From: Bacilli bacterium
GTDB taxonomy: Bacteria > Bacillota_I > Bacilli_A > RF39 > UBA660
Direction of reading: 5' to 3'
NCBI GenBank assembly: GCA_017441845.1
Contig: JAFRVB010000004.1
Location: 3,684-67,683 of the forward strand
DNA length: 64,000 bases
Below, one piece after another: positions 1-9,721 of this stretch (position 1 is its first letter; every line of letters begins with the position of its first letter). Made by a program: the position numbers and the translations under genes. The notes under the pieces were generated by a model that worked only from the letters and a program-made list of their open reading frames with translations, was not told the DNA's origin and made no database searches.

Positions 1-381
1 CATAGAAAATATTTAGAAAATATAGATCTATATGAATATGAATTAAAGAAAGAGGCTAATGAAAAAAATAAAAAAGAATATATATTTAATTGCTTATCAG
101 ATATAAATATATTTCCTCAAATACAAGAATACTATATAATGTTAAATTCATTAGGATATGATTATAAGATTGAATATCAAGATAAAACAAGTAAAGAATA
201 TCCTGTTTTCAGGAAAATAATATCCTTCTATGAAAAAGAAAAGAACTATACTGAAGCGATTCGATTATGCGATATTGCAATCAAGTGTGGTATAAAAAAG
301 TACCACGGTAAAACTAGTATTATTGAAAAAAAGAAAAAATTAGAAGAACAAAGTAAGAAGAATAAAAATGAAAAAAAGTAA
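1..381 (+). CDS. 3' end of a CDS that begins upstream of the window; hypothetical protein with a Lys/Glu-rich tail
   Basis: Frame 1 is open from nt 1 to the TAA at 379-381; the track shows only the internal Met at 139. No motif recognised. Confidence 0.5.
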   Translation, partial: HRKYLENIDLYEYELKKEANEKNKKEYIFNCLSDINIFPQIQEYYIMLNSLGYDYKIEYQDKTSKEYPVFRKIISFYEKEKNYTEAIRLCDIAIKCGIKKYHGKTSIIEKKKKLEEQSKKNKNEKK

Positions 382-417
382 TTCGTTTACACTAAACAAA
401 AGAAAAAATTATTTTTA

Positions 418-426
418 TGATATAAT
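418..426 (+). promoter_or_regulatory. Extended -10 promoter element (TGaTATAAT) upstream of the MazG-like gene
   Basis: The sequence tgatataat lies 18 nt upstream of the ATG at 444. No good -35 is visible, which is typical of extended -10 promoters. Confidence 0.45.
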
Positions 427-443
427 TGAATTAGGTGGTAAGG

Positions 444-758
444 ATGAAAGAATTAACTAAAAAAGTAGTTGAGTTTACTCGTGAAAGAGATTGGGATCAG
501 TTCCATTCTCCAGAGAACTTAGCAAAAAGTATTTCAATTGAAGCAGGAGAATTATTGGAATGTTTTCAATGGAATAATGAATATGCTTTGGATGAAGTAA
601 AGGAAGAACTAGCTGATGTTATAAACTATTGTATATTAATGGCTGATAAATTAGGTGTTGACCCAGAAGAAATAGTTCTAGAAAAAATGGATAAAACCGC
701 AAAAAAATATCCGGTGGAGAAAGCAAAAGGAAAAAGTTTAAAGTATGACAAATTATAA
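444..758 (+). CDS. MazG-like (all-alpha, DCTPP1/RS21-C6-type) nucleotide pyrophosphohydrolase
   Basis: About 105 aa. RDWDQFHSPENLAKSISIEAGELLECFQW ... EELADVINYCILMADKLGVD ... KYPVEK matches the small MazG-like family, including its EAxELLE / EELAD metal-binding helices. The track starts at GTG 435; ATG 444 lies behind GGTGG. Confidence 0.75.
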   Translation: MKELTKKVVEFTRERDWDQFHSPENLAKSISIEAGELLECFQWNNEYALDEVKEELADVINYCILMADKLGVDPEEIVLEKMDKTAKKYPVEKAKGKSLKYDKL

Positions 759-1242
759 TATTGACAAAGCTAAAAATGTTTTTAATCAAGCAAATGGTTT
801 TCTAAAATTCATTGATGAAAGTGAATTTATTGCACTTAATCCTATGTATCAAAATCCTTTTTATATTAATTGTTTGCTTTGCTGTGAATTATATTTAAAG
901 GCTCTATTAATATTAGATGGTAAAGATGAAAAATATTGTAAAAAAATGGGGCATAAACTATTAGATTTATTTAGTGGTTTAAAAAAAGAAGATCAAAATC
1001 AAATAAAAACAATATTACAAATAGTAATTGATGAAGATATATTTCAGTATTTAGATAGAATAAATGATGATTTTATAGAAATGAGATATGTTTATGTTAA
1101 TGGGGAAAATATTGATGCTAAAGAATTTAATAATAATTATGCCAAAACAATAGGTTTAATGTATAGATTACAAAACTATACTAGTCTTAAATTATATGGT
1201 AGAGATACCTATGAGGAAGTGAAAAATAATGCTGGTATATGA
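745..1242 (+). CDS. HEPN-like all-helical protein
   Basis: CCELYLKALLILDG...GHKLLDLF and a later EMRY segment resemble classical HEPN helices. The assignment is by pattern only, and no clean Rx4-6H motif was seen. The ATG overlaps the upstream stop by 14 nt. Confidence 0.45.
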   Translation: MTNYNIDKAKNVFNQANGFLKFIDESEFIALNPMYQNPFYINCLLCCELYLKALLILDGKDEKYCKKMGHKLLDLFSGLKKEDQNQIKTILQIVIDEDIFQYLDRINDDFIEMRYVYVNGENIDAKEFNNNYAKTIGLMYRLQNYTSLKLYGRDTYEEVKNNAGI

Positions 1243-3103
1243 AGGTATAAAATCTGGTTTTATTGAAGATGTAGACTTAGGAATAATTGCAGATAAGATT
1301 AGAAATAAATACATTGAAGTCATAAAAAAAAGACCAAGTGCACCTGAATTCAATTCATGGAAAAATTCTATGCAATATATGAGGGGTGTACTAAGTGATA
1401 ATGACATACCAAATAATATTGGTATAGCTATCGAATATAATATTCCGCCAACTGGTTGTAGAATAGATTTTATGATGTCTGGATATAAACAATCTAAATC
1501 AAATGTTGTAATTATTGAGTTAAAACAATGGGATAAAGCAACTGAAGTTGGAGAGATGGATGGGATATATAAAGTTAATACATTCACTGGCGGAGGAATG
1601 AGAGACGTTAATCATCCATCATATCAAGCCATGACATATGCCAACTTAATTAGAGATTACAATGAATCAGTTCAATTAGAAGATATTAACGTAGTACCAT
1701 GTGCGTACCTTCATAATTATTATTTTGATAATGATGATACACTATTATCAAATAATTATAAAGAATATGTAGAAGCAGCTCCATTATTTGGACATAATGA
1801 TGTATTAAAACTAAGAGATTTTATTAAAAGATACATAGAAGATGGGGACGAAGGAAATATTCTCTATGAAATAGATCATGGAAGAATAAGACCATCTAAG
1901 ATGTTACAAGATTCGTTATCACAAATGTTAAAAGGTAATAAAGAATTCTACATGATAGATTCTCAAAAAATTGTATATGAATATGCATTAAGATATGCAA
2001 TAGATACAGTTGCTAGTAATTCTAAAAACGTAATGATAGTTAGAGGCGGACCAGGTACAGGGAAATCAGTCTTAGCCATCAATTTACTCGTAGAATTAAA
2101 CAATAGAAATATGACTTGTTTCTATGTTACTAAGAATGCAGCACCTAGAACTGTTTATGCAGCTAAATTAAGAGGAGAATTTACAGCAACTCACATAAAT
2201 CATCTATTTCAAGGATCAGGAGGATTCTATGAAGAAGAAACAAACAAATTAGATTGTTTAGTAGTAGATGAAGCACATAGATTAAATGAAAAATCAGGAT
2301 TATTTCAAAATAGAGGAGAAAACCAAATTAAGGAAATAATAAATGCTGCTAAATTTTCAATATTTTTTATAGATGAAAACCAAAAAGTAACATTAAAAGA
2401 TATTGGCAGCGAAGATTTAATAAGAAAATTTGCTCAAGAACAAGGAGCAGGTATTTATACATATGAATTAGATAGTCAATTTAGATGTAATGGATCAGAT
2501 GGATATGTTGCTTGGCTAGATAATACTTTAGAAATAAGAGATACAGCAAACTTCGATATAGAGGGATTTGATTATGACTTTAAAGTATTTGATGATCCAA
2601 ATGAAATGAGAAGAGAAATAGAGGAAAAGAACAAGATTAATAATAAATCAAGAATAGTTGCTGGATATTGTTGGGAATGGCCTACAGGTAATACCAGAAA
2701 TGATTCTAATTATCATGAAATCAAAATACCTGAAAAGAAGTTTGAAATTAGCTGGAATCTTGAGTCTGGTGAAGCGTTTGCAATAGGTGAGAATTCTATT
2801 AATGAAGCAGGATGTATTCACACAGTTCAGGGTTTAGAGTTTGACTATGTTGGAGTAATAATTGGTGATGATATGAGATATGAAGATGGACATATTGTTA
2901 CTGATTATACAAAAAGGGCACGAAGTGATAACTCACTAAAGGGAATCAATAGAATAACAAATGAACAAGGAGAAGAAGTGGCTAATAAAATAGCTGATAC
3001 TATAATAAAGAACACATATAGAACATTAATGACTAGAGGAATGAAAGGTTGTTATGTTTATTGCACAGATAAAGAATTACAGGAGTATTTAAAGAATAGT
3101 TAG
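1229..3103 (+). CDS. PD-(D/E)xK nuclease-like N-terminal domain fused to a DUF2075 / Schlafen-group-3-like P-loop helicase
   Basis: N-terminus: GCRIDFMMSG ... VVIIELKQW (D ... ExK). Walker A: RGGPGTGKSVLA. Walker B: CLVVDEAHRL. C-terminus: IHTVQGLEFDYVGVIIG and TLMTRGMKG, typical of the DUF2075 / SF1-like C-terminal domain. The start overlaps the upstream gene by 14 nt and follows GAGGAAGTGA. Confidence 0.75.
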   Translation: MLVYEGIKSGFIEDVDLGIIADKIRNKYIEVIKKRPSAPEFNSWKNSMQYMRGVLSDNDIPNNIGIAIEYNIPPTGCRIDFMMSGYKQSKSNVVIIELKQWDKATEVGEMDGIYKVNTFTGGGMRDVNHPSYQAMTYANLIRDYNESVQLEDINVVPCAYLHNYYFDNDDTLLSNNYKEYVEAAPLFGHNDVLKLRDFIKRYIEDGDEGNILYEIDHGRIRPSKMLQDSLSQMLKGNKEFYMIDSQKIVYEYALRYAIDTVASNSKNVMIVRGGPGTGKSVLAINLLVELNNRNMTCFYVTKNAAPRTVYAAKLRGEFTATHINHLFQGSGGFYEEETNKLDCLVVDEAHRLNEKSGLFQNRGENQIKEIINAAKFSIFFIDENQKVTLKDIGSEDLIRKFAQEQGAGIYTYELDSQFRCNGSDGYVAWLDNTLEIRDTANFDIEGFDYDFKVFDDPNEMRREIEEKNKINNKSRIVAGYCWEWPTGNTRNDSNYHEIKIPEKKFEISWNLESGEAFAIGENSINEAGCIHTVQGLEFDYVGVIIGDDMRYEDGHIVTDYTKRARSDNSLKGINRITNEQGEEVANKIADTIIKNTYRTLMTRGMKGCYVYCTDKELQEYLKNS

Positions 3104-3145
3104 ATACTCTTTTTTCATGGAGATCTATTAAAAAATAATTAAAGC

Positions 3146-3154
3146 TGGTATACT
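3146..3154 (+). promoter_or_regulatory. Extended -10 promoter element (TGgTATACT) upstream of the Nudix gene
   Basis: tggtatact lies in the 70-nt gap after the DUF2075 gene. The RBS AGGTGA is at 3161-3166 and the ATG at 3173. Confidence 0.45.
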
Positions 3155-3172
3155 GTAAATAGGTGATATATT

Positions 3173-3559
3173 ATGATTACAGTAGTAGCTGCTTTAATAA
3201 AAAAAGATAATAAATATTTAATAGCAAGACGTTCTACCGGAGATCCTAATGTATATGGTAAATGGGAGTTTCCAGGAGGGAAAGTAAAAGAAAGTGAATC
3301 AGAAGAACACGCTATTGAAAGAGAAATAAAAGAAGAATTTGAAATGGATATTAAAGCTAAAAAATTTTTGATTAATAGTATCTGTGAGTATCCAACTAAA
3401 ATAATAGATTTGAAATTATATGAATGTGAATATATTTCTGGAGAATTCAATCTTCATGATCATTCAGAATACCAGTTTTTAAATAAAGAGGATATATTAA
3501 AATTAGATTTATGTCCTGCAGATATTCCGTTAGCAAAATATATAAAGGAGAACTTATAA
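3173..3559 (+). CDS. Nudix hydrolase, MutT/NudG-like (deoxy)nucleoside triphosphate pyrophosphohydrolase
   Basis: The Nudix box GGKVKESESEEHAIEREIKEEFEM is near-canonical (GX5EX7REUXEEXGU). The N-terminus VVAALIKKDNKYLIARR..G.WEFPGG is typical of MutT-type enzymes. Confidence 0.85.
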   Translation: MITVVAALIKKDNKYLIARRSTGDPNVYGKWEFPGGKVKESESEEHAIEREIKEEFEMDIKAKKFLINSICEYPTKIIDLKLYECEYISGEFNLHDHSEYQFLNKEDILKLDLCPADIPLAKYIKENL

Positions 3560-3560
3560 T

Positions 3561-6302
3561 ATGAAAAACAAATTTTTATCTAATAAAAACAGCGAGTTTT
3601 TAAATAAAATAAAGGATAATCTTAAAGCATGTAATTCGTTTTATTTTACTGTTAGTTTCATTAAAAAGGCTGGGTTGATATTATTAGAAAGAGAAATAGA
3701 AGAAGCGTTAGAAAGAGGCGCTGTCGGTAAAATAATAACATCAACATATCAAAATTTTACTGATATAAGCTCATTAGAACAATTCTATAATTGGCAAAAA
3801 GAGTTTGATAATTTTGAATGTCACCTAGATTATGAATGTTTTGGTGAAAGTGGATATCATTCTAAGGGATATATGTTTGAATATAATGATTCATTTGAAT
3901 TTGTAGTAGGGTCATCAAATATAACAAGATTTGCACTAACAAAAAACATAGAATGGAATGTTTCTTTAATAGCTAAAGATGATTTTGATTCTTACAAAGA
4001 AGGTTTAAAAGAATTTAATATTTTATGGAATAAAACATTAGAATTAGATTATAAATTAATCGAAAAATATAAACTACAATTAGATTATGCTATTGAAAAA
4101 TGGGATATGGATTATATAAATGCAACTGATACAACTATTAACCCTAATTCTATGCAAAGAAAAGCATTGAGGGAATTAAGAAGATATAGAGATACTGGAG
4201 TGAAGAAAGCATTAATAATTAGTGCAACAGGATCTGGAAAAACATACTTGGCCGCTTTTGATGCTCGTAACTTTGGGGCAAAAAGATTGTTATATATTGT
4301 TCACAGAGAATCAATTCTAAAAGATGCTAGAGATTCGTTTATAAAAATATTTGGAGCTGAAAGAACATATGGCTTTTTCACTGGTAATGAATCAAATCAA
4401 GAGTGTGATTTTATATTTGCAACCAGTAATATGTTAGGGAGACACTTAGATGAATTTGATAGAAATGAATTTGAGTATATTATTTATGATGAAGTGCATC
4501 ACGTGGTAGCTGATACTGGTAAAAAGATTTTTGAATATTTTAAACCAGAATTTATGCTAGGCTTAACGGCTACTCCTGAAAGAATGGATAATCAAAATGT
4601 ATTTGAATTTTTTGACCAAAATGTACCATTTGAATTAAGACTTAGAGACGCGATTAATAATGATTTAGTAGTACCATTTCATTATTATGGTATTAGAGAT
4701 GAATTGGTTGATTATAGTTCTAAAGATAGAATGGTAATAGCGAAAGCAATTGCAGCACAAGATAATATAGAGTTTATTAAAGAACAAATAGAGAAACACA
4801 AAAAAGTAGGAGAAAAATTAAAATGTATTGCTTTCTGTACTAACATACAACATTGTAAGTTAATGGCTGAAGAACTTTATGAAGAAGGGTATAATACAAT
4901 ATCTTTAACAGGTATAAACGATACTGGTGTTAGAATAAAAGCATTTAAAGATTTGCAAGATGATAATAATCCTTTAGAAATAATTTGTACTGTAGATATA
5001 TTAAATGAAGGAGTAGATATACCACAAATAAATATGGTATTATTCCTACGACCAACCGAATCACAAACAGTATTTATCCAACAATTAGGACGCGGTTTAA
5101 GAAAGTACCCAGGAAAAGAATATGTAACAGTACTAGATTTTATTGGAAATAATTATGATAGAGCAGTTCAAATTGCAATGGCGTTAGGAACTTTAAGTAA
5201 TACAACATATATAGAAAAAGCATATTTAAAAGACATGATTAGTACTAATTTTAAGTCTTTAGATATACCTAATGTGTTGATAGATATTGACGATTTATCA
5301 AAAGAAGAAATAATCGAATATATTGATAAAACGAATTTTAATTCTAAAGCATTTTTAGAAAAAGATTATACTAATTTTAAGAATTATATTAATAATGGAT
5401 CATATCCAAGTCACATGGATTTCTTAAATTCAGATGTCGCCCCCGATCTAATTAGAATTATAAAAACTTCATTTAGTGGATCTAAGAATATGTCATATTA
5501 TAATTTTTTAAAAAAGATCAATGAAGAAACAATTCCAATATTCAATGAGATTGAAATAAAAATAATAAACATAGTTGAAGATTTATTACCTATTGCTAGA
5601 TTAGATGAATACCTAATTATAGAACAAGCAATAAAAGAAGGTATTATAGATTTAAAAAGATTAGAAGGACGTAATGCGCACATTACAGAGAAAACCCTTG
5701 AAAATGCATATAATAATCTAGTTAAATTGGGAGTTTTAGAAAACAATAAATTTGATTTGCTAAGAATGAATAATGATGAATTGAAAGATTATTTAATAGA
5801 TACATTGAATTATGGAATAATTAGATATAATAGAGAATTTGGTGAATATGAAGGATTGTTTAAACTATACCGAAATTACTATAAAGAACAAGCATCAAGA
5901 ATTATGCTAAAAAATGGTTTGTTGCAAAAAGGAACTTACTATGAAGATGATGTGGCATACATCTTCGCTGGAATAAAAAAAGATGAAGATGGAAAATTAA
6001 ATTATAAAGATAAATTTTTGAATAGCAAAGTATTCCAATGGGAAAGTATTGCTGATGTATCTGAAAATGAAAAAAGGAATCTAAGAAACGCTAAGAAAGT
6101 TCATTTGTTTATTAGAAAAATGGAATCAGAAGATACAGTTACTTTACCTTATACTTATTTCGGATTAGGGAGCTTTACCAACGAAAGACCATGGTATACA
6201 GAAGAAGATGGAGTAAAACACCCTACATTATTATTTGATATTATCTTGGACAATGAAGTGCCTAAAGAATATTTTGTTGATTTTGAAATATCAAATAATT
6301 AA
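3561..6302 (+). CDS. PLD-nuclease / SF2 helicase / DUF3427 fusion protein with SauUSI-like type IV (modification-dependent) restriction endonuclease architecture
   Basis: N-terminal HKD motif: YHSKGYMFE...VVGSSNIT. Helicase motifs: SATGSGKT (I), IYDEVHH (II), LTATPER (III), QQLGRGLR (VI). The C-terminal region, with FQWES... and KVHLFIRK...PYTYFGLG, is typical of DUF3427. The start is 2 nt after the Nudix stop. Confidence 0.75.
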   Translation: MKNKFLSNKNSEFLNKIKDNLKACNSFYFTVSFIKKAGLILLEREIEEALERGAVGKIITSTYQNFTDISSLEQFYNWQKEFDNFECHLDYECFGESGYHSKGYMFEYNDSFEFVVGSSNITRFALTKNIEWNVSLIAKDDFDSYKEGLKEFNILWNKTLELDYKLIEKYKLQLDYAIEKWDMDYINATDTTINPNSMQRKALRELRRYRDTGVKKALIISATGSGKTYLAAFDARNFGAKRLLYIVHRESILKDARDSFIKIFGAERTYGFFTGNESNQECDFIFATSNMLGRHLDEFDRNEFEYIIYDEVHHVVADTGKKIFEYFKPEFMLGLTATPERMDNQNVFEFFDQNVPFELRLRDAINNDLVVPFHYYGIRDELVDYSSKDRMVIAKAIAAQDNIEFIKEQIEKHKKVGEKLKCIAFCTNIQHCKLMAEELYEEGYNTISLTGINDTGVRIKAFKDLQDDNNPLEIICTVDILNEGVDIPQINMVLFLRPTESQTVFIQQLGRGLRKYPGKEYVTVLDFIGNNYDRAVQIAMALGTLSNTTYIEKAYLKDMISTNFKSLDIPNVLIDIDDLSKEEIIEYIDKTNFNSKAFLEKDYTNFKNYINNGSYPSHMDFLNSDVAPDLIRIIKTSFSGSKNMSYYNFLKKINEETIPIFNEIEIKIINIVEDLLPIARLDEYLIIEQAIKEGIIDLKRLEGRNAHITEKTLENAYNNLVKLGVLENNKFDLLRMNNDELKDYLIDTLNYGIIRYNREFGEYEGLFKLYRNYYKEQASRIMLKNGLLQKGTYYEDDVAYIFAGIKKDEDGKLNYKDKFLNSKVFQWESIADVSENEKRNLRNAKKVHLFIRKMESEDTVTLPYTYFGLGSFTNERPWYTEEDGVKHPTLLFDIILDNEVPKEYFVDFEISNN

Positions 6303-6392
6303 ATTGTTAACAAAAATTGCGAAAGTTCCAATTAAAATTGGTAGAGAATATATTTCAAATAGTATATGATTTATTTGAAAGAAGGGATAATT

Positions 6393-6983
6393 ATGGAAAT
6401 TGGAAAAAAGATAATGGAATTGAGAAAGAAAAATGGTTTTTCTCAAGAAGAGTTAGCTGATAAAGTAGGAGTAACTAGACAAACTATTTCTAAATGGGAA
6501 TTAGGTGAAACTTCACCTGATTTAAAACAAGCTAAAGAGTTATCTAAAATATTTAAAGTAAGTTTAGATGAATTAGTTGATAATGATATAGAAAATATAT
6601 TAATAGAGAAAACATCTAATACTGAAAAATTAGCTGGATTAATATTAAAATTACTTAGATTCTTAATAGTATTTATTATTGTATTACCTATATTAGTAAT
6701 TATATTAAATATTGTAGTCAAAAATTATAGAGAGAATAATTCTGGTAGATTAGTTAATACTTCTATACAATGTACATTACATGATAAAGAATATTCTTAT
6801 GAATTTGAGTATTTTGAAGAAACTGGTCAAATTAAAGCAGCTGGTGGAGATGAATATCTAGCTAATATTACTAATGTTGATAATGAAAGTGATGCTTATG
6901 TAGCATTAGATAAGATAACTGCTTATGTAGAGAATAATAATGGTACCTGTAAAAGAAGTGAACCTAAAGAAGTAAAAGATTAA
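6393..6983 (+). CDS. XRE-family HTH transcriptional regulator with a transmembrane segment and an extracytoplasmic C-terminal domain
   Basis: LRKKNGFSQEELADKVGVTRQTISKWELGETSP is a Cro/C1-type HTH, followed by the hydrophobic helix LLRFLIVFIIVLPILVIILNIVV. The start is chosen at the MEIGKK Met behind GAAGGGA; the track starts at 6366. Confidence 0.8.
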   Translation: MEIGKKIMELRKKNGFSQEELADKVGVTRQTISKWELGETSPDLKQAKELSKIFKVSLDELVDNDIENILIEKTSNTEKLAGLILKLLRFLIVFIIVLPILVIILNIVVKNYRENNSGRLVNTSIQCTLHDKEYSYEFEYFEETGQIKAAGGDEYLANITNVDNESDAYVALDKITAYVENNNGTCKRSEPKEVKD

Positions 6984-7075: not shown

Positions 7076-7912
7076 ATGATAGAGTGTTTATTAGAAGCAT
7101 TAATTGATACATTAAAAGTTATACCTTTTTTATTTTTAACATTTATTGTATTAGAGTATATTGAACATAAATTTACTGATAAGAACAAAAAGATGTTATC
7201 TAAAAATAAAAAGTATGGTCCAGCTATTGGAGGAGTATTAGGCGCAATACCACAATGTGGATTTGGTACAGTCGCAGCTAATTTATTCTCTGCTAGAGTA
7301 ATTACTATGGGTACATTAATAGCTGTTTTCTTATCAACAAGTGATGAAATGTTACCTATAATGATAAGTGAACAAGCTAATATACTATTAATATTAAAAA
7401 TAATAGGTTTTAAATTAATAGTTGGTATTATTATTGGTTATATTATTGATCTAATCTATAGAAAGAATCAAGAAAAAGCAGAAATACATGAATTCTGTGA
7501 ACATGAACATTGTGATTGTGAACATGATGGAATACTTCTTTCTAGTATTAAACATACTATTAAGATTGGATTATTTATTCTTTTAGCTAATATAATTATT
7601 GGATTATTAATCTTCTATATAGGAGAAGATAAAATATCTAGTTTATTACTACATCATAATATTTTAACTTATCTATTATCTAGTTTAGTAGGATTAATAC
7701 CTAACTGTGCTGGTAGTGTTATTATTACTGAGTTATTCTTATCTAATATGATAAGTGTAGGTACACTATTAGCTGGTTTATTAACTGGTAGTGGTATCGG
7801 TATATTAGTATTATTTAGAGTAAATAAAAATTTAAAAGAAAACTTAACTATACTTGGAATACTATACTTTATAGGTGTAGTTATTGGTATATTAGTTGAT
7901 TTCATAATATAA
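7076..7912 (+). CDS. Polytopic membrane protein, ArsP_2-like predicted metal exporter
   Basis: GPAIGGVLGAIPQCGFGTVAANLFSARVITMGTLIAVFLSTSDEMLPIM resembles the predicted 10-TM metal exporter family. The His/Cys-rich loop HEFCEHEHCDCEHDG supports metal binding. Confidence 0.55.
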   Translation: MIECLLEALIDTLKVIPFLFLTFIVLEYIEHKFTDKNKKMLSKNKKYGPAIGGVLGAIPQCGFGTVAANLFSARVITMGTLIAVFLSTSDEMLPIMISEQANILLILKIIGFKLIVGIIIGYIIDLIYRKNQEKAEIHEFCEHEHCDCEHDGILLSSIKHTIKIGLFILLANIIIGLLIFYIGEDKISSLLLHHNILTYLLSSLVGLIPNCAGSVIITELFLSNMISVGTLLAGLLTGSGIGILVLFRVNKNLKENLTILGILYFIGVVIGILVDFII

Positions 7913-7917
7913 TTTAA

Positions 7918-7941
7918 AACAGTCACAAGACTGTTTTTTTG
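7918..7941 (+). terminator. Rho-independent terminator
   Basis: aacagtc-acaa-gactgtt hairpin followed by a T-run. Confidence 0.75.
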
Positions 7942-7994
7942 ACAAAATAAGCAAAAAGTTATAAAATAATGCCTTAACCAAAGGGGAAATAGTT

Positions 7995-8807
7995 ATGAAT
8001 CAAGAAATAAAGTATAAAATTAGAAAAATAGTTACTTCAAATGTTATTATTGTATGTCTTGCTGGAATATCTATTGGTTCAGGTTATGAATTATATCAAA
8101 TAAAAAGTGGTTATGATGATAATCAAAAAGAATATGATGAATTAGCAGAAGAAGTAATAGAAGATAATAATCAAGAAGATAGATATGTTAATTTTGATTT
8201 ATTAAAAGAAATGAATCCCGATACAGAAGGATGGATCAAATATAATGATACGCACATAGATTATCCTGTAGTACAAGGAGAAGATAATAAAAAGTATTTA
8301 ACTGAATCTTTTGAAGGTAATTCTAATACTTTCGGAACTTTATTTATAGATGCAGGATGTAATGATCCATTTAATGATTTTACTACTATAATATATGGAC
8401 ATCATATGAAAGATGGTTCAATGTTTGGAGACATAAAAAAATTAAAAAATGAAGATTTTTGTAAAAATCATCCAGAATTAGAATTATATACTGAAGATAA
8501 AGATTGTACTCTAGAAATATGTGCTTTCTTAAGTCAACCAGCAGACTCAGACATATATAAAATAAATATAAATGATGAACAAGATAAAGAAGATTATATA
8601 AATATGGTTAAAGAATTAGCTTTATATCAAACAGATACTGAGATAAATACAAATGATAAATTAGTATTATTAAGTACTTGTGCTTATGATTTTGAAGATT
8701 GTAGATACATAGTAGTATGTAAGTTAAAAGAAAAGACTAAATACTTAAAAATAGAAGCACCTCTAGTAAGTAAACAAAAAATATTAATAAAAGAAAAGAC
8801 TAGATAA
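7995..8807 (+). CDS. srtB: Class B sortase
   Basis: N-terminal TM anchor; YPVVQGEDNKKYL, IIYGHHMKDGSMFGDIKKL, catalytic LLSTC and a downstream Arg (CRYIVV) match the SrtB pattern. Confidence 0.8.
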   Translation: MNQEIKYKIRKIVTSNVIIVCLAGISIGSGYELYQIKSGYDDNQKEYDELAEEVIEDNNQEDRYVNFDLLKEMNPDTEGWIKYNDTHIDYPVVQGEDNKKYLTESFEGNSNTFGTLFIDAGCNDPFNDFTTIIYGHHMKDGSMFGDIKKLKNEDFCKNHPELELYTEDKDCTLEICAFLSQPADSDIYKININDEQDKEDYINMVKELALYQTDTEINTNDKLVLLSTCAYDFEDCRYIVVCKLKEKTKYLKIEAPLVSKQKILIKEKTR

Positions 8808-8845
8808 AACCAGTCTTTTTATATTATAATTAAATTGGTGATATT

Positions 8846-9721
8846 ATGAGTAAAAGTATTATAGAACTAAAACATCTAAAGAAATATTATGATACTTCTA
8901 GAGGTATAGAAGATGTATCATTAAAAATAGATAAAGGAGATATCTATGGTTTTATTGGTCCTAATGGATCTGGTAAATCTACTACTATAAGAACTATTAT
9001 GACTCTTATTAATAAAACATCTGGTGAGATTTATATTAATGGTAAAGAATTAGAATTTGATGATGTCAAAGTAAAAAGATCTATTGGTTATCTACCTAGT
9101 GAAATAAATCTATATGATGATATGACTACTAAAGAATTATTAGATTATCATGAATCTTTCTATAAAGAAGATTTATCTAAAAGAAGAAAAGAATTAGTTA
9201 AATTATTAAAAGTAGATGAAAATAAAAAAGTAGGAGCTCTATCTCTAGGTAATCAAAAGAAAGTAGGTTTAGTTTTAGCTTTAATGCATGAACCTGAAAT
9301 ATTAATATTAGATGAACCAACTAGTGGTCTAGATCCTATAATGCAAAACACTCTACATGATATCTTATTAAAAGAAAAAGAAAAAGGTACTACAATACTT
9401 TATTCATCACATGTTTTAAATGAAGTATCTAATATCTGTGATAAAGTAGGTTTTATTAAAGATGGAATAATTATAAAAGAAGATTTAATGGAAAATATTA
9501 AGAAAGAAAATTATACTTATTTAAAAATAATATCTAATGAAATAGATAAAATAAAAAAAGATTTAAAACTAAAAGTACATAAAGAGTTAAATAATGAAAT
9601 AGTATTTATTAATACTTTAACTCCTAAAGAATTAATAACTAAATTGAAAGATTATAATATAGAACACTTATTAATAGAAGAAGTACCATTAGAGGACTTA
9701 TTCATTAATTATTATAAGTAG
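8846..9721 (+). CDS. ABC transporter ATP-binding protein (ABC-2 exporter type)
   Basis: Walker A GPNGSGKST, signature LSLGNQKK, Walker B ILILDEPTSGLD. Confidence 0.9.
   Translation: MSKSIIELKHLKKYYDTSRGIEDVSLKIDKGDIYGFIGPNGSGKSTTIRTIMTLINKTSGEIYINGKELEFDDVKVKRSIGYLPSEINLYDDMTTKELLDYHESFYKEDLSKRRKELVKLLKVDENKKVGALSLGNQKKVGLVLALMHEPEILILDEPTSGLDPIMQNTLHDILLKEKEKGTTILYSSHVLNEVSNICDKVGFIKDGIIIKEDLMENIKKENYTYLKIISNEIDKIKKDLKLKVHKELNNEIVFINTLTPKELITKLKDYNIEHLLIEEVPLEDLFINYYK

Follow-up and report, generated by a model that had tools for sequence, protein, structure and literature searches.

A five-gene block at the edge of a mobile island

The window, as we call the whole 64,000-nucleotide stretch of DNA analyzed here, carries between positions 444 and 6302 five tightly packed genes that lie on a single strand (+) and mostly overlap or abut. 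Their products are, in order, a DCTPP1-type MazG-like pyrophosphohydrolase, a HEPN-like protein, a DUF2075 nuclease-helicase, a NudG-like Nudix hydrolase and a SauUSI homolog. Pfam, NCBIfam, PADLOC and PDB matches confirm the five identities, placements and strand given in the original prediction, which had, however, described the two hydrolases as flanking the restriction enzyme: the pair that they flank is HEPN-DUF2075, and the SauUSI-like gene lies downstream of both.

The MazG/HEPN and HEPN/DUF2075 junctions are 14-nt overlaps, and a single base separates the Nudix stop codon from the SauUSI start. Between DUF2075 and Nudix lies a 69-nt gap in which a scan found no terminator-like site; an extended -10 promoter-like sequence read there (TGgTATACT, 3146..3154, +) may act as an internal promoter ahead of the Nudix gene, and this gap with its promoter-like site counts against reading the block as one joint cassette. 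A comparable site upstream of the MazG gene (TGaTATAAT, 418..426, +) was recognized by consensus match, and because the promoter scan as a whole showed no enrichment over shuffled sequences, we treat it as a candidate.

At the window edge, positions 1..381 (+) hold the C-terminal 126 codons of a TPR-like protein whose full gene lies at 7957-9153 on an identical metagenome contig (L001). The complete protein (398 aa) gives a single weak TPR_12 match in profile searches and no PADLOC match, and is part of the island's cargo. The suggestion that the island may extend upstream proved right: the identical contig carries an integrase, an excisionase and a Mob_Pre relaxase upstream of the block. The block also varies among strains. 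In a sister strain (L185; flanking protein 96% identical) this position is occupied by a LlaJI-type m5C restriction-modification system; a relative (L187; 92%) has neither the block nor that system, so the block is accessory. Alignment with L185 (blastn and pairwise) places the right border of the strain-variable region at 6303..6303: DNA homology starts directly after the SauUSI-like stop codon, and the LlaJI-type system sits across the border, on the other side from the resumed homology. The block thus forms the cargo end of a defense island that is mobile and differs between strains.

A MazG-like pyrophosphohydrolase is paired with a DUF2075 nuclease-helicase

The first gene (444..758, +) encodes an all-alpha MazG-like nucleoside-triphosphate pyrophosphohydrolase of 104 aa (PF12643, 1.2e-21) whose closest solved structures are mouse and human DCTPP1 (5.5e-18). 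Translation probably starts at ATG 444, matching metagenome gene calls; the alternative GTG at 435 falls within the ribosome-binding site. The metal-binding E-x-x-E and E-x-x-D motifs and the aromatic pocket residues align with those of DCTPP1, for which 5-methyl-dCTP is a substrate (PMC4491611), and are conserved across an alignment of 46-47 DUF2075-linked MazG homologs, which retain nearly all residues common to them and the mammalian enzyme.

The next gene (745..1242, +) encodes a HEPN-like helical protein of 165 aa (Pfam HEPN, 9.9e-6; 26.1 bits against a cut-off of 22) that has just nine homologs among 5.8 billion proteins. In the homolog alignment the Rx4-6H RNase motif is absent, and E48, K52, H70, R114-Y115 and R141 are invariant. 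Foldseek searches with its structure model (pLDDT 82.5) gave HEPN proteins as the highest-probability matches, at E-values that are not significant. Its insertion between MazG and DUF2075 is lineage-specific, and the product might act as a non-catalytic adaptor placed between them.

The nuclease-helicase (1229..3103, +; 624 aa; Pfam SLFN-g3_helicase/DUF2075, PF09848, 1.5e-104) combines an N-terminal NERD-like PD-(D/E)xK domain (about residues 40-165) with a C-terminal SF1B helicase of the DUF2075/Schlafen-group-3 type (residues 266-614). E69, R78-x-D80, E97-x-K99, Walker A G276-K279 and Walker B D347-E348 are invariant in 25 diverse homologs; weak NERD matches occur in four of six family members, and the structure model (pLDDT 88) matches SLFN11, RecD2, Dda, Dna2 and Upf1. 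No modified-base reader domain is recognizable in the DUF2075 protein, an observation that also counts against a joint cassette. Many homologs carry a C-terminal LexA-like S24 autoprotease domain.

MazG is the immediate same-strand neighbor of this family in 42 of 79 species-level loci (46 when one intervening gene is allowed), often with a 4-nt overlap. These loci come from Firmicutes, Proteobacteria, Bacteroidota, Verrucomicrobia, Saccharibacteria and Chloroflexi and are spread throughout the DUF2075 tree; an archaeal plasmid also has the pair, annotated as "nucleotide pyrophosphohydrolase" and DUF2075. Neighbors of 28 MazG-DUF2075 loci include many PADLOC families, among them SoFic, PD-Lambda-5, AbiLi, MADS, pAgo and restriction-modification. 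We found no description of the MazG-DUF2075 pairing in the literature.

A Nudix hydrolase precedes a full-length SauUSI homolog

The fourth gene (3173..3559, +) encodes a NudG/MutT-like Nudix hydrolase of 128 aa (Pfam NUDIX) with an intact Nudix box and an invariant GGK...E...RE..EE pattern in the family alignment. It falls in the PADLOC candidate family PDC-S07 (9.4e-42) and matches the NudG structure 2RRK (4.1e-18). The closest NCBIfam model is likewise NudG (2.2e-26), at 92 bits against an equivalog cut-off of 156, so that the protein is not a NudG orthologue by the NCBI criterion and the NudG substrate is not confidently transferable; this score, too, counts against the joint-cassette reading. 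E. coli NudG, the nearest characterized enzyme, prefers 5-methyl-dCTP, with a kcat/Km of 1300 vs 47 for CTP (x10^3 M-1 s-1; PMC5158307).

The last gene (3561..6302, +) encodes a full-length SauUSI homolog (PLD, SF2 helicase, DUF3427) that matches the SauUSI structure 7CLG (1.6e-114) and is colinear with it across residues 5-872, the PLD motif HxK...GSSN included. It also matches PADLOC mREase_IV (1.2e-118) and the domains ResIII (2.6e-35), Helicase_C (2.3e-12) and DUF3427 (1.9e-19). Among the 63 closest Nudix relatives, many of which occur in housekeeping contexts, a SauUSI-like gene is the immediate neighbor in 20, an SRA-like gene in two more and a DUF3427 gene in one. The pairing is real but not new: the linkage was reported in 2011 with at least 60 linked pairs (PMC3141236). 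In S. aureus Newman, deletion of the linked Nudix gene gave a viable mutant and left SauUSI plasmid restriction intact (PMC3312211); that dispensability is a further point against a joint cassette. With MazG beside DUF2075 in 42/79 loci and SauUSI beside Nudix in 20/63, the arrangement is far beyond chance, and the earlier view that each hydrolase is coupled to its own nuclease or helicase holds: these are conserved partners and not stray housekeeping genes.

The two pairs recur as a four-part operon

MazG, DUF2075, Nudix and SauUSI occur together as one operon, in shuffled orders, at about six other loci in unrelated bacteria: Nudix-SauUSI-MazG-DUF2075 (L025), SauUSI-Nudix-MazG-DUF2075 (L064), MazG-SauUSI-Nudix-x-x-DUF2075 (L028, x marking another gene), DUF2075-MazG-SauUSI with Nudix on the opposite strand (L033), and two loci with all four components (L146, L118). 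L029 has DUF2075, Nudix and SauUSI without MazG. In L013, MazG-HEPN-DUF2075-Nudix is followed by SRA-NOV_C, a modified-cytosine reader-nuclease that replaces SauUSI, and all genes overlap. The four genes are spaced by overlaps or by 2-12 nt in L025, L064, L028 and L013, and the four-part loci fall in at least five separate sub-clades of the DUF2075 tree.

Either pair evidently functions in the absence of its counterpart. No SauUSI-like gene lies within 10 kb in 70 of the 79 MazG-DUF2075 loci, most Nudix-SauUSI loci are without DUF2075, and MazG-DUF2075 is present in only 2-3 of the independently found Nudix-SauUSI loci. This prevailing separateness also speaks against a joint cassette.

Two modules that may cooperate against modified DNA

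We see an even chance that 444-6302 comprises two pyrophosphohydrolase plus nuclease-helicase modules cooperating against phages or plasmids with modified cytosine. Both follow a common plan in which a nucleotide pyrophosphohydrolase is tied to a nuclease-helicase: module 1 joins a DCTPP1-type MazG to a NERD/PD-(D/E)xK-SF1B (DUF2075, AbiO/Nhi-like) enzyme, module 2 a NudG-like Nudix to a SauUSI-type enzyme predicted to cut 5mC- or 5hmC-containing DNA, and the two have repeatedly fused into a single operon. Because the four parts recur in unrelated bacteria, joint action against viruses with modified DNA is probable. Substrates, cooperation between modules and any anti-phage effect are inferred. 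The SauUSI-type enzyme would cut incoming modified DNA, while MazG and Nudix would turn 5-modified dCTP, perhaps also dCTP, into monophosphate, thereby starving the replication of modified genomes. The hydrolases may also prevent modified nucleotides, whether phage-made or recovered from DNA breakdown, from entering the host chromosome and exposing it to the Type IV enzyme, and the DUF2075 enzyme could attack replication intermediates. The modified-cytosine theme of the original prediction is thus supported by comparative genomics of the pairs and four-part loci, including the SRA-NOV_C swap, as a genomic association; its mechanism stays at the level of a proposal.

A less probable but still plausible reading is that two independent systems, MazG(-HEPN)-DUF2075 and Nudix-SauUSI, came to lie side by side through hotspot pile-up, each hydrolase serving its own nuclease with no common modified-nucleotide logic. 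The mostly separate occurrence of the pairs, the promoter-like site in the gap between them, the different system at this site in the sister strain, and the many unrelated defense systems that neighbor MazG-DUF2075 elsewhere all fit this reading. Against it, independent systems would not usually have four genes spaced so closely in varied orders, the link recurs across sub-clades, and the replacement of SauUSI is another modified-cytosine reader.

We consider it unlikely that the hydrolases serve as a safety catch or regulator, hydrolyzing an NTP cofactor or activating signal of self-toxic nuclease-helicases (cf. MazG tempering MazF in the mazEFG operon), or that they cause abortive infection by draining canonical dCTP/dNTPs after the helicase has sensed phage DNA. 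In favor, high copy numbers of the related AbiO are toxic (PMC13064643), the frequent 4-nt MazG/DUF2075 overlaps suggest a stoichiometric complex, the S24 domain implies activation by DNA damage, and a MazG-like enzyme of another defense system has been predicted to be an effector that targets and depletes dNTPs (bioRxiv 10.64898/2026.01.15.699771). Yet the S. aureus Nudix mutant is viable with SauUSI intact, the DCTPP1 pocket residues kept in the MazG partners suggest that the substrate is a pyrimidine dNTP and not a signaling nucleotide, and the recurrent link to modified-cytosine readers is left unexplained. That both are ordinary pool sanitizers and chance neighbors of defense genes is very unlikely: both folds include well-known house-cleaning members and many Nudix relatives sit in housekeeping contexts, but MazG adjoins DUF2075 in 53-58% of loci across phyla (expected, well under 1%), SauUSI adjoins 32% of Nudix relatives, the DUF2075 tree argues against sampling of one spreading element, and the whole block is absent from close relatives and lies on an island with integrase and relaxase.

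Comparison with known systems

The window MazG has mammalian DCTPP1 (RS21-C6, dCTP pyrophosphatase) as its best solved-structure match and shares its metal-binding and pocket residues, but is shorter (104 aa) and encoded in a defense operon. The Nudix protein resembles E. coli NudG (Orf135), a pyrimidine (d)NTP/5-methyl-dCTP pyrophosphohydrolase, in top NCBIfam model, a top PDB match, Nudix box and length class, and differs in its sub-cut-off score and PDC-S07 membership. AbiO (Lactococcus), Nhi (S. epidermidis) and Nhi-like (Millman 2022) are single-gene nuclease-helicase defenses that likewise combine an N-terminal PD-(D/E)xK-type nuclease with a DUF2075/SF1B helicase (PMC13064643; bioRxiv 10.1101/776245; bioRxiv 10.1101/2022.05.11.491447). 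PADLOC AbiO/Nhi models cover only about residues 237-421 of the window enzyme (1e-16), which therefore belongs to a different subfamily, one that has MazG as a conserved partner and frequently carries an S24 peptidase at its C-terminus, two features not described for AbiO/Nhi. In the McaZI group of DUF3427-DUF3883 modification-dependent enzymes (Lutz et al. 2019), a DUF2075 NTPase also lies beside a DUF3427-type reader-nuclease in defense islands; in the part of that account available to us (PMC6765204), no MazG or Nudix partner or four-part operon is described, and the reader enzyme is without its own helicase, whereas the window SauUSI homolog has one. The S. aureus SauUSI locus (SAUSA300_2431/2432) shows the same PLD nuclease, SF2 helicase and DUF3427 order, near-full-length alignment and a small MutT/NudG-like Nudix gene directly upstream (PMC3141236). 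Unlike that locus, the window pair, whose 5mC/5hmC specificity is putative, forms a block with a MazG-HEPN-DUF2075 trio on a mobilizable island, and a related locus couples Nudix to an SRA-NOV_C enzyme instead.

Two pyrophosphohydrolases and two predicted nuclease-helicases in one compact block

Six co-oriented ORFs, all on the forward strand, lie within the window's initial 6.3 kb (G+C approximately 25–31%). The leftmost, a TPR-like gene (1-381), is truncated by the window edge to its C-terminal 126 codons and is present in full (398 aa) on a metagenome contig matching the window (L001). It is followed by a MazG-like gene (435/444-758; Pfam PF12643, 1.2e-21, 77.1 bits against a curated cut-off of 27), a HEPN-like gene (745-1242), a gene for a predicted 624-aa nuclease-helicase (1229-3103; DUF2075/Schlafen-group-3 helicase, PF09848, 1.5e-104, over the C-terminal 350 residues), a gene for a 128-aa Nudix hydrolase (3173-3559) and a gene for a 913-aa SauUSI-like enzyme (3561-6302; colinear with the SauUSI crystal structure 7CLG over residues 5-872, 1.6e-114). 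Matches of these last five genes in Pfam, PADLOC, NCBIfam and the PDB bear out the identities given in the original prediction, which had also described the two hydrolases as flanking the restriction enzyme; this arrangement was wrong, and MazG and Nudix in fact flank the HEPN-DUF2075 pair. Catalytic motifs are intact in all four enzymes of the block.

The MazG and HEPN genes overlap by 14 nt, as do the HEPN and DUF2075 genes, and a single base separates Nudix from the SauUSI-like gene. The sole gap in the block, 69 nt between DUF2075 and Nudix, holds no terminator-like site and contains an extended -10-like sequence (TGgTATACT); a TGaTATAAT sequence lies upstream of the MazG gene. Promoter and terminator scans gave no enrichment over shuffled sequences, and both extended -10 sites are consensus matches that serve only as leads.

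A DCTPP1-type MazG adjoins a predicted AbiO/Nhi-like nuclease-helicase across many phyla

We aligned the 624-aa protein with 25 diverse full-length homologues (34–55% identity). Invariant residues are found both in the N-terminal 165 residues (E69, R78-x-D80, E97-x-K99, W101, H129-P130 and H162-N163) and in the helicase (Walker A G276-T-G-K279 and Walker B D347-E348). In an AlphaFold model (pLDDT 88.3), D80 lies on one beta-strand and E97-x-K99 on the next, the arrangement of PD-(D/E)xK nucleases. Sub-threshold NERD matches cover this region in four of six family members, and Foldseek matches the helicase part to SLFN11, RecD2, Dda, Dna2 and Upf1. On these grounds the protein probably has the architecture of AbiO, Nhi and Nhi-like enzymes (PMC13064643; bioRxiv 10.1101/776245; bioRxiv 10.1101/2022.05.11.491447). 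The PADLOC AbiO and Nhi profiles match residues 237-421 only (3e-16 and 1e-15) and neither matches at full length, so we regard it as a distinct subfamily rather than a member of those families. AbiO and Nhi-type nuclease-helicases protect against phages, and at high copy AbiO is toxic (PMC13064643).

Homologues of about 800 aa were considered as possible Nudix or MazG fusions and rejected, the fused part being a Peptidase_S24 domain. This LexA/UmuD-like domain is found at the C-terminus of roughly one in five DUF2075 homologues (15 of 79 loci; proteins of about 790–820 aa), and 11 of these 15 loci retain the MazG partner. The S24-bearing proteins include P0131, P0132, P0135, P0139, P0143, P0203 and P0211, and the loci include L045, L054, L055, L059, L060, L061, L067, L069, L070, L072, L075, L077, L078 and L079. 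The domain suggests that DUF2075 proteins may be controlled or activated by DNA damage or RecA-ssDNA.

In a PDB sequence search, the window MazG comes closest to dCTP pyrophosphatase 1 of mouse and human (5.5e-18). It resembles DCTPP1 in its metal-binding glutamates and aspartate (E-x-x-E ... E-x-x-D: E33, E36, E39, E55 and D58, conserved and aligned with the mouse enzyme) and in its aromatic residues. Nearly every residue shared with mouse DCTPP1 is kept by the 47 DUF2075-linked MazG proteins (R15, W17, F20-H21, E33, E36, E39, W43, E55, D58, Y62, K81 and Y89-P90). DCTPP1 accepts 5-methyl-dCTP as a substrate (PMC4491611), and a predicted preference of the window MazG for dCTP and 5-modified dCTP draws its support from conservation of the pocket residues W17, H21, W43 and Y62.

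An alignment-based scan for DUF2075 over one genome per GTDB species returned 80 loci (44–67% identity) from many phyla, in which ORFs were called and searched with phmmer; DUF2075 was called in 79 of them. In 42 of these 79 loci the gene directly next to DUF2075 on the same strand is MazG-like (29 upstream, 13 downstream), frequently with 4-nt overlaps, and in four more a single gene separates the two; the chance expectation of such adjacency for one particular small family is well below 1%. In 28 loci the neighboring genes match PADLOC models for SoFic, PD-Lambda-5, AbiLi, MADS, pAgo, Type I and II restriction-modification (R-M) and others, which places the pair in defense islands. The module ranges widely over bacteria and reaches at least one archaeon: on a Halalkalicoccus plasmid, a gene annotated by RefSeq as nucleotide pyrophosphohydrolase adjoins DUF2075. 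The family is found, at 51–56% identity, on Halalkalicoccus jeotgali plasmid 1 (L183, 5648-7890, MazG partner present), on the Methanosphaera plasmid pNP174 (L182) and in the Microcystis phage Mwe-JY31 (sequence record H26, 3858-5705). We found no description of the pairing in a literature search for MazG with DUF2075 or Schlafen, nor did we find it in PADLOC v2, and the window MazG has no PADLOC match.

A lineage-specific HEPN-like insert

The HEPN-like protein has just nine homologues in a search of 5.8 billion proteins. Its Pfam HEPN match is marginal though above threshold (26.1 against 22 bits). The predicted structure is a helical bundle whose top-probability Foldseek matches are the HEPN proteins 1wol and 4nqf (probability 0.8, TM 0.43–0.57), with E-values of 0.9–1.0 that are not significant; PDB sequence searches with this protein and with the DUF2075 protein gave no matches. 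Among the nine homologues, E48, K52, H70, R114-Y115 and R141 are invariant, and no conserved R...H pair has the spacing of the Rx4-6H RNase motif. The protein is probably non-catalytic, judging from its sequence, and we treat it as a lineage-specific adaptor.

Elsewhere, small genes with no similarity to the window HEPN fill the position between hydrolase and DUF2075 (191 aa at 9394-9969 in L093; 106 and 327 aa at 4875-6165 in L028), which suggests an exchangeable adaptor slot. Directly 5' of MazG, the window carries the TPR-like gene and the related cassette L013 an unrelated 459-aa protein (7211-8590) with a weak Apea-like HEPN match and an R-x4-H motif (TRNYFTH). Another MazG-HEPN-(DUF2075) copy (L014, 1606-8954) lies 3' of a C5 DNA methyltransferase-HTH_17 fusion, a 737-aa protein matching sigma-70 region 4 and the RNA polymerase alpha-CTD, and a DUF6339 protein; this may be another uncharacterized system.

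The Nudix hydrolase is paired with a predicted modified-cytosine restriction enzyme

The nearest curated model of the window Nudix is NCBIfam NudG, but the protein should be named NudG-like rather than NudG, given that its score (2.2e-26, 92.3 bits) falls below the equivalog cut-off of 156 bits. A match to the PADLOC candidate family PDC-S07 spans essentially its full length (residues 1-126, 9.4e-42). The Nudix box Gx5Ex7REUxEExGU is present (G-KVKES-E-SEEHAIE-RE-I-K-EE-F-E-M), its only deviation being the last G, replaced by E. NudG itself favors 5-methyl-dCTP approximately 28-fold over CTP (PMC5158307).

SauUSI performs ATP-dependent cutting of DNA containing 5mC or 5hmC, and Xu et al. mutated its catalytic H119, K121 and N139 (PMC3141236). 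The corresponding PLD motif (HxK...N) is present in the window enzyme, where HSKGYMF...GSSNIT aligns with HAKGYIF...GSSNLT of SauUSI; Pfam PLDc_2 scores 25.8 bits, under its cut-off of 27. A central SF2 helicase/ATPase follows (ResIII, 2.6e-35; Helicase_C, 2.3e-12), and the C-terminus, scanned alone, matches DUF3427 (PF11907; 1.9e-19, 70.5 bits against 27.7), a predicted reader of modified cytosine. The full-length Pfam scan of the same protein missed DUF3427, and long multidomain proteins of AT-rich genomes may be under-annotated by single-pass scans. In one contig (L003) the gene is split into 617 and 295 aa; we rejected a pseudogene in favor of a scaffolding artifact, the interruption (9517-9696) being GC-rich foreign sequence with an N-run.

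In a metagenome scan with the Nudix alignment, a Nudix ORF was called in 63 loci; its immediate neighbor is SauUSI-like in 20, SRA-like in 2 and DUF3427 in 1, the remainder being housekeeping contexts. This reproduces the linkage of Xu et al. (2011), who listed at least 60 Nudix-SauUSI pairs and did not examine Nudix function (PMC3141236). Together with MazG beside DUF2075, this adjacency supports, as a genomic association, the originally predicted theme behind the coupling of hydrolases to nucleases.

The block is mobile accessory cargo in a defense hotspot

Exact sequences of the DUF2075 and SauUSI-like proteins occur on 16–20 metagenome contigs. One of them, L001, matches the window at 100% identity across its first 7 kb, the part compared, and adds 8.8 kb upstream, confirming that the island extends beyond the 5' edge of the window. 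Leftwards from that edge come the complete TPR-like gene, a pair of genes with no assigned function and two GNAT acetyltransferases, then a 583-aa protein with six treble-clef zinc-finger repeats. Further on, a Mob_Pre relaxase gene overlaps the gene for a tyrosine integrase, followed by an excisionase-like gene (HTH_17) and two HTH regulators. The 583-aa protein (L001 3708-5459), lying between the relaxase and GNAT genes, consists of six DUF4379 repeats, seen as 62–80-nt direct repeats in the DNA, and has no PADLOC match. Of the island features looked for, integrase, excisionase and relaxase were found 6–9 kb upstream; the left end of the island lies past the DNA covered, as the contig stops 706 bp beyond L001. 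Direct-repeat searches revealed no att-type repeats in the 17 kb extended contig, the right-junction sequence has no second copy in the 15 kb upstream of the junction, and the window contains no tRNA gene and no Rfam match.

An exact-protein look-up of the flanking ArsP_2 returned island-bearing contigs only; alternative and empty sites were found through ArsP_2 homologues of 92–96% identity. A sister strain (L185; ArsP_2 96% identical) keeps the right flank (HTH_3, ArsP_2, sortase and ABC transporter), and its DNA homology with the window starts at 6303, directly after the SauUSI stop codon. Left of this junction, the MazG...SauUSI block is replaced by an LlaJI-type R-M system of two C5 DNA methyltransferases, an AAA_5 protein and an RE_LlaJI protein (L185 1112-7117; ENA ERZ28653713 scaffold_4065). 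In a more distant relative (L187; ArsP_2 92% identical), tag and ogt-like repair genes precede ArsP_2 and homology begins at window 7021. The block, missing from both, is accordingly strain-variable accessory cargo in a defense hotspot, not core genome. C5 methyltransferases and a predicted m5C-dependent restriction enzyme alternating at one site is the mutual exclusivity that one would expect.

The HTH_3 regulator (window 6393-6983) is predicted to have a membrane segment and sits immediately beyond the variable region; it adjoins two different defense cargos, in the window and in L185, is missing from L187, and may mark or regulate the hotspot. The closest DUF2075 match in the GTDB scan, 67% identical, has no shared synteny with the window.

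The four components recur in shuffled order

The closest HEPN homologue with genomic context, in L013, sits in a MazG-HEPN-DUF2075-Nudix cassette in which every junction overlaps. Its proteins are 68–83% identical to those of the window, and its flanks are unrelated. After Nudix, the place of SauUSI is taken by a 342-aa SRA + NOV_C protein, another kind of predicted reader-nuclease for modified cytosine.

Loci from the GTDB and metagenome scans combine the same parts differently: Nudix-SauUSI-MazG-DUF2075 in Solobacterium (L025), SauUSI-Nudix-MazG-DUF2075 in Faecalicoccus (L064), MazG-SauUSI-Nudix-two small genes-DUF2075 in L028, and DUF2075-MazG-SauUSI with Nudix on the opposite strand in Niallia (L033). 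Two further loci (L146 and L118) have all four components, and Virgibacillus (L029) has DUF2075, then Nudix-SauUSI, without MazG. On a neighbor-joining tree of DUF2075 proteins, MazG-linked loci spread over the whole tree, and those linked to Nudix/SauUSI are scattered over five or more separate sub-clades, mixed among relatives without them. The four parts recurrently co-occur, each hydrolase is coupled to its own nuclease, and the block is mobile and accessory.

Proposed mechanism and alternatives

From family knowledge and the genomics, which is solid, we infer a mechanism in which MazG and Nudix would remove 5-modified dCTP. This would block replication of phages that make modified cytosine at the nucleotide level, and would keep modified nucleotides out of the host chromosome, sparing it from cutting by the Type IV enzyme; both nuclease-helicases would meanwhile destroy incoming or replicating DNA. 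Deletion of the S. aureus Nudix gene left restriction unaffected (Monk et al., PMC3312211), which fits this model, since plasmid restriction requires no pool sanitation.

In the main rival explanation, the two modules would be independent of each other and share a hotspot as neighbors. Their link is facultative: no SauUSI-like gene lies within 10 kb in 70 of the 79 DUF2075 loci, and MazG-DUF2075 is present in just two or three independently found Nudix-SauUSI loci. Where the parts do meet, shuffled order, conserved content and tight packing are the usual signature of functional linkage. A second rival sees the hydrolases as safety catches, or as canonical-dNTP depletion effectors, for self-toxic helicases; it gains from the LexA-like domain on a fifth or so of DUF2075 homologues and from MazG-like enzymes being predicted dNTP-targeting effectors elsewhere (bioRxiv 10.64898/2026.01.15.699771). 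A simple housekeeping role of the hydrolases is effectively excluded.

A bolder reading, which we advance tentatively and consider somewhat unlikely to hold as a whole, is that MazG and the NERD-SF1B protein may form an ancient, unnamed two-gene immune module with an obligate (modified-)dCTP pyrophosphatase partner, and that, joined to Nudix and a modified-cytosine reader-nuclease, the resulting four-part system may hit both cytosine-modified phage DNA and its precursors. Whatever the mechanism, MazG-DUF2075 resides in defense islands, its two genes being neighbors in over half of the 79 species-level loci, and is a good candidate for experimental validation.

Relation to known systems

Parts of this picture are familiar. 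The Nudix-SauUSI pair is already known and functionally unexplained, the nuclease-DUF2075 architecture is of an already known kind, and a passage in Lutz et al. notes DUF2075 adjoining DUF3427-type enzymes (PMC6765204). In the literature searched we found no description of a DCTPP1-type MazG that regularly partners this DUF2075 family (across bacteria and on an archaeal plasmid), of a four-part operon whose modified-cytosine reader is interchangeable, or of the HEPN-like insert. The MazG system to which DefensePredictor draws attention differs from this pair, as it combines MazG with a MazG-C kinase.

If the proposed mechanism is true, it would offer a testable function for the Nudix gene beside SauUSI, unexplained since 2011. 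SauUSI is the main transformation barrier of S. aureus. The proteins of the first module have human relatives in DCTPP1 and the SLFN11-type helicase domain; under the bolder reading above, this would point to a prokaryotic origin for a connection of nucleotide-pool control with Schlafen-type restriction. Known nucleotide-depletion defenses, such as dCTP deaminase and dGTPase, target canonical dNTPs; pyrophosphohydrolases of non-canonical dNTPs working with nucleases would follow a different defense logic, in which the precursors for modified phage DNA are hit or the host is shielded against the Type IV enzyme that it carries.
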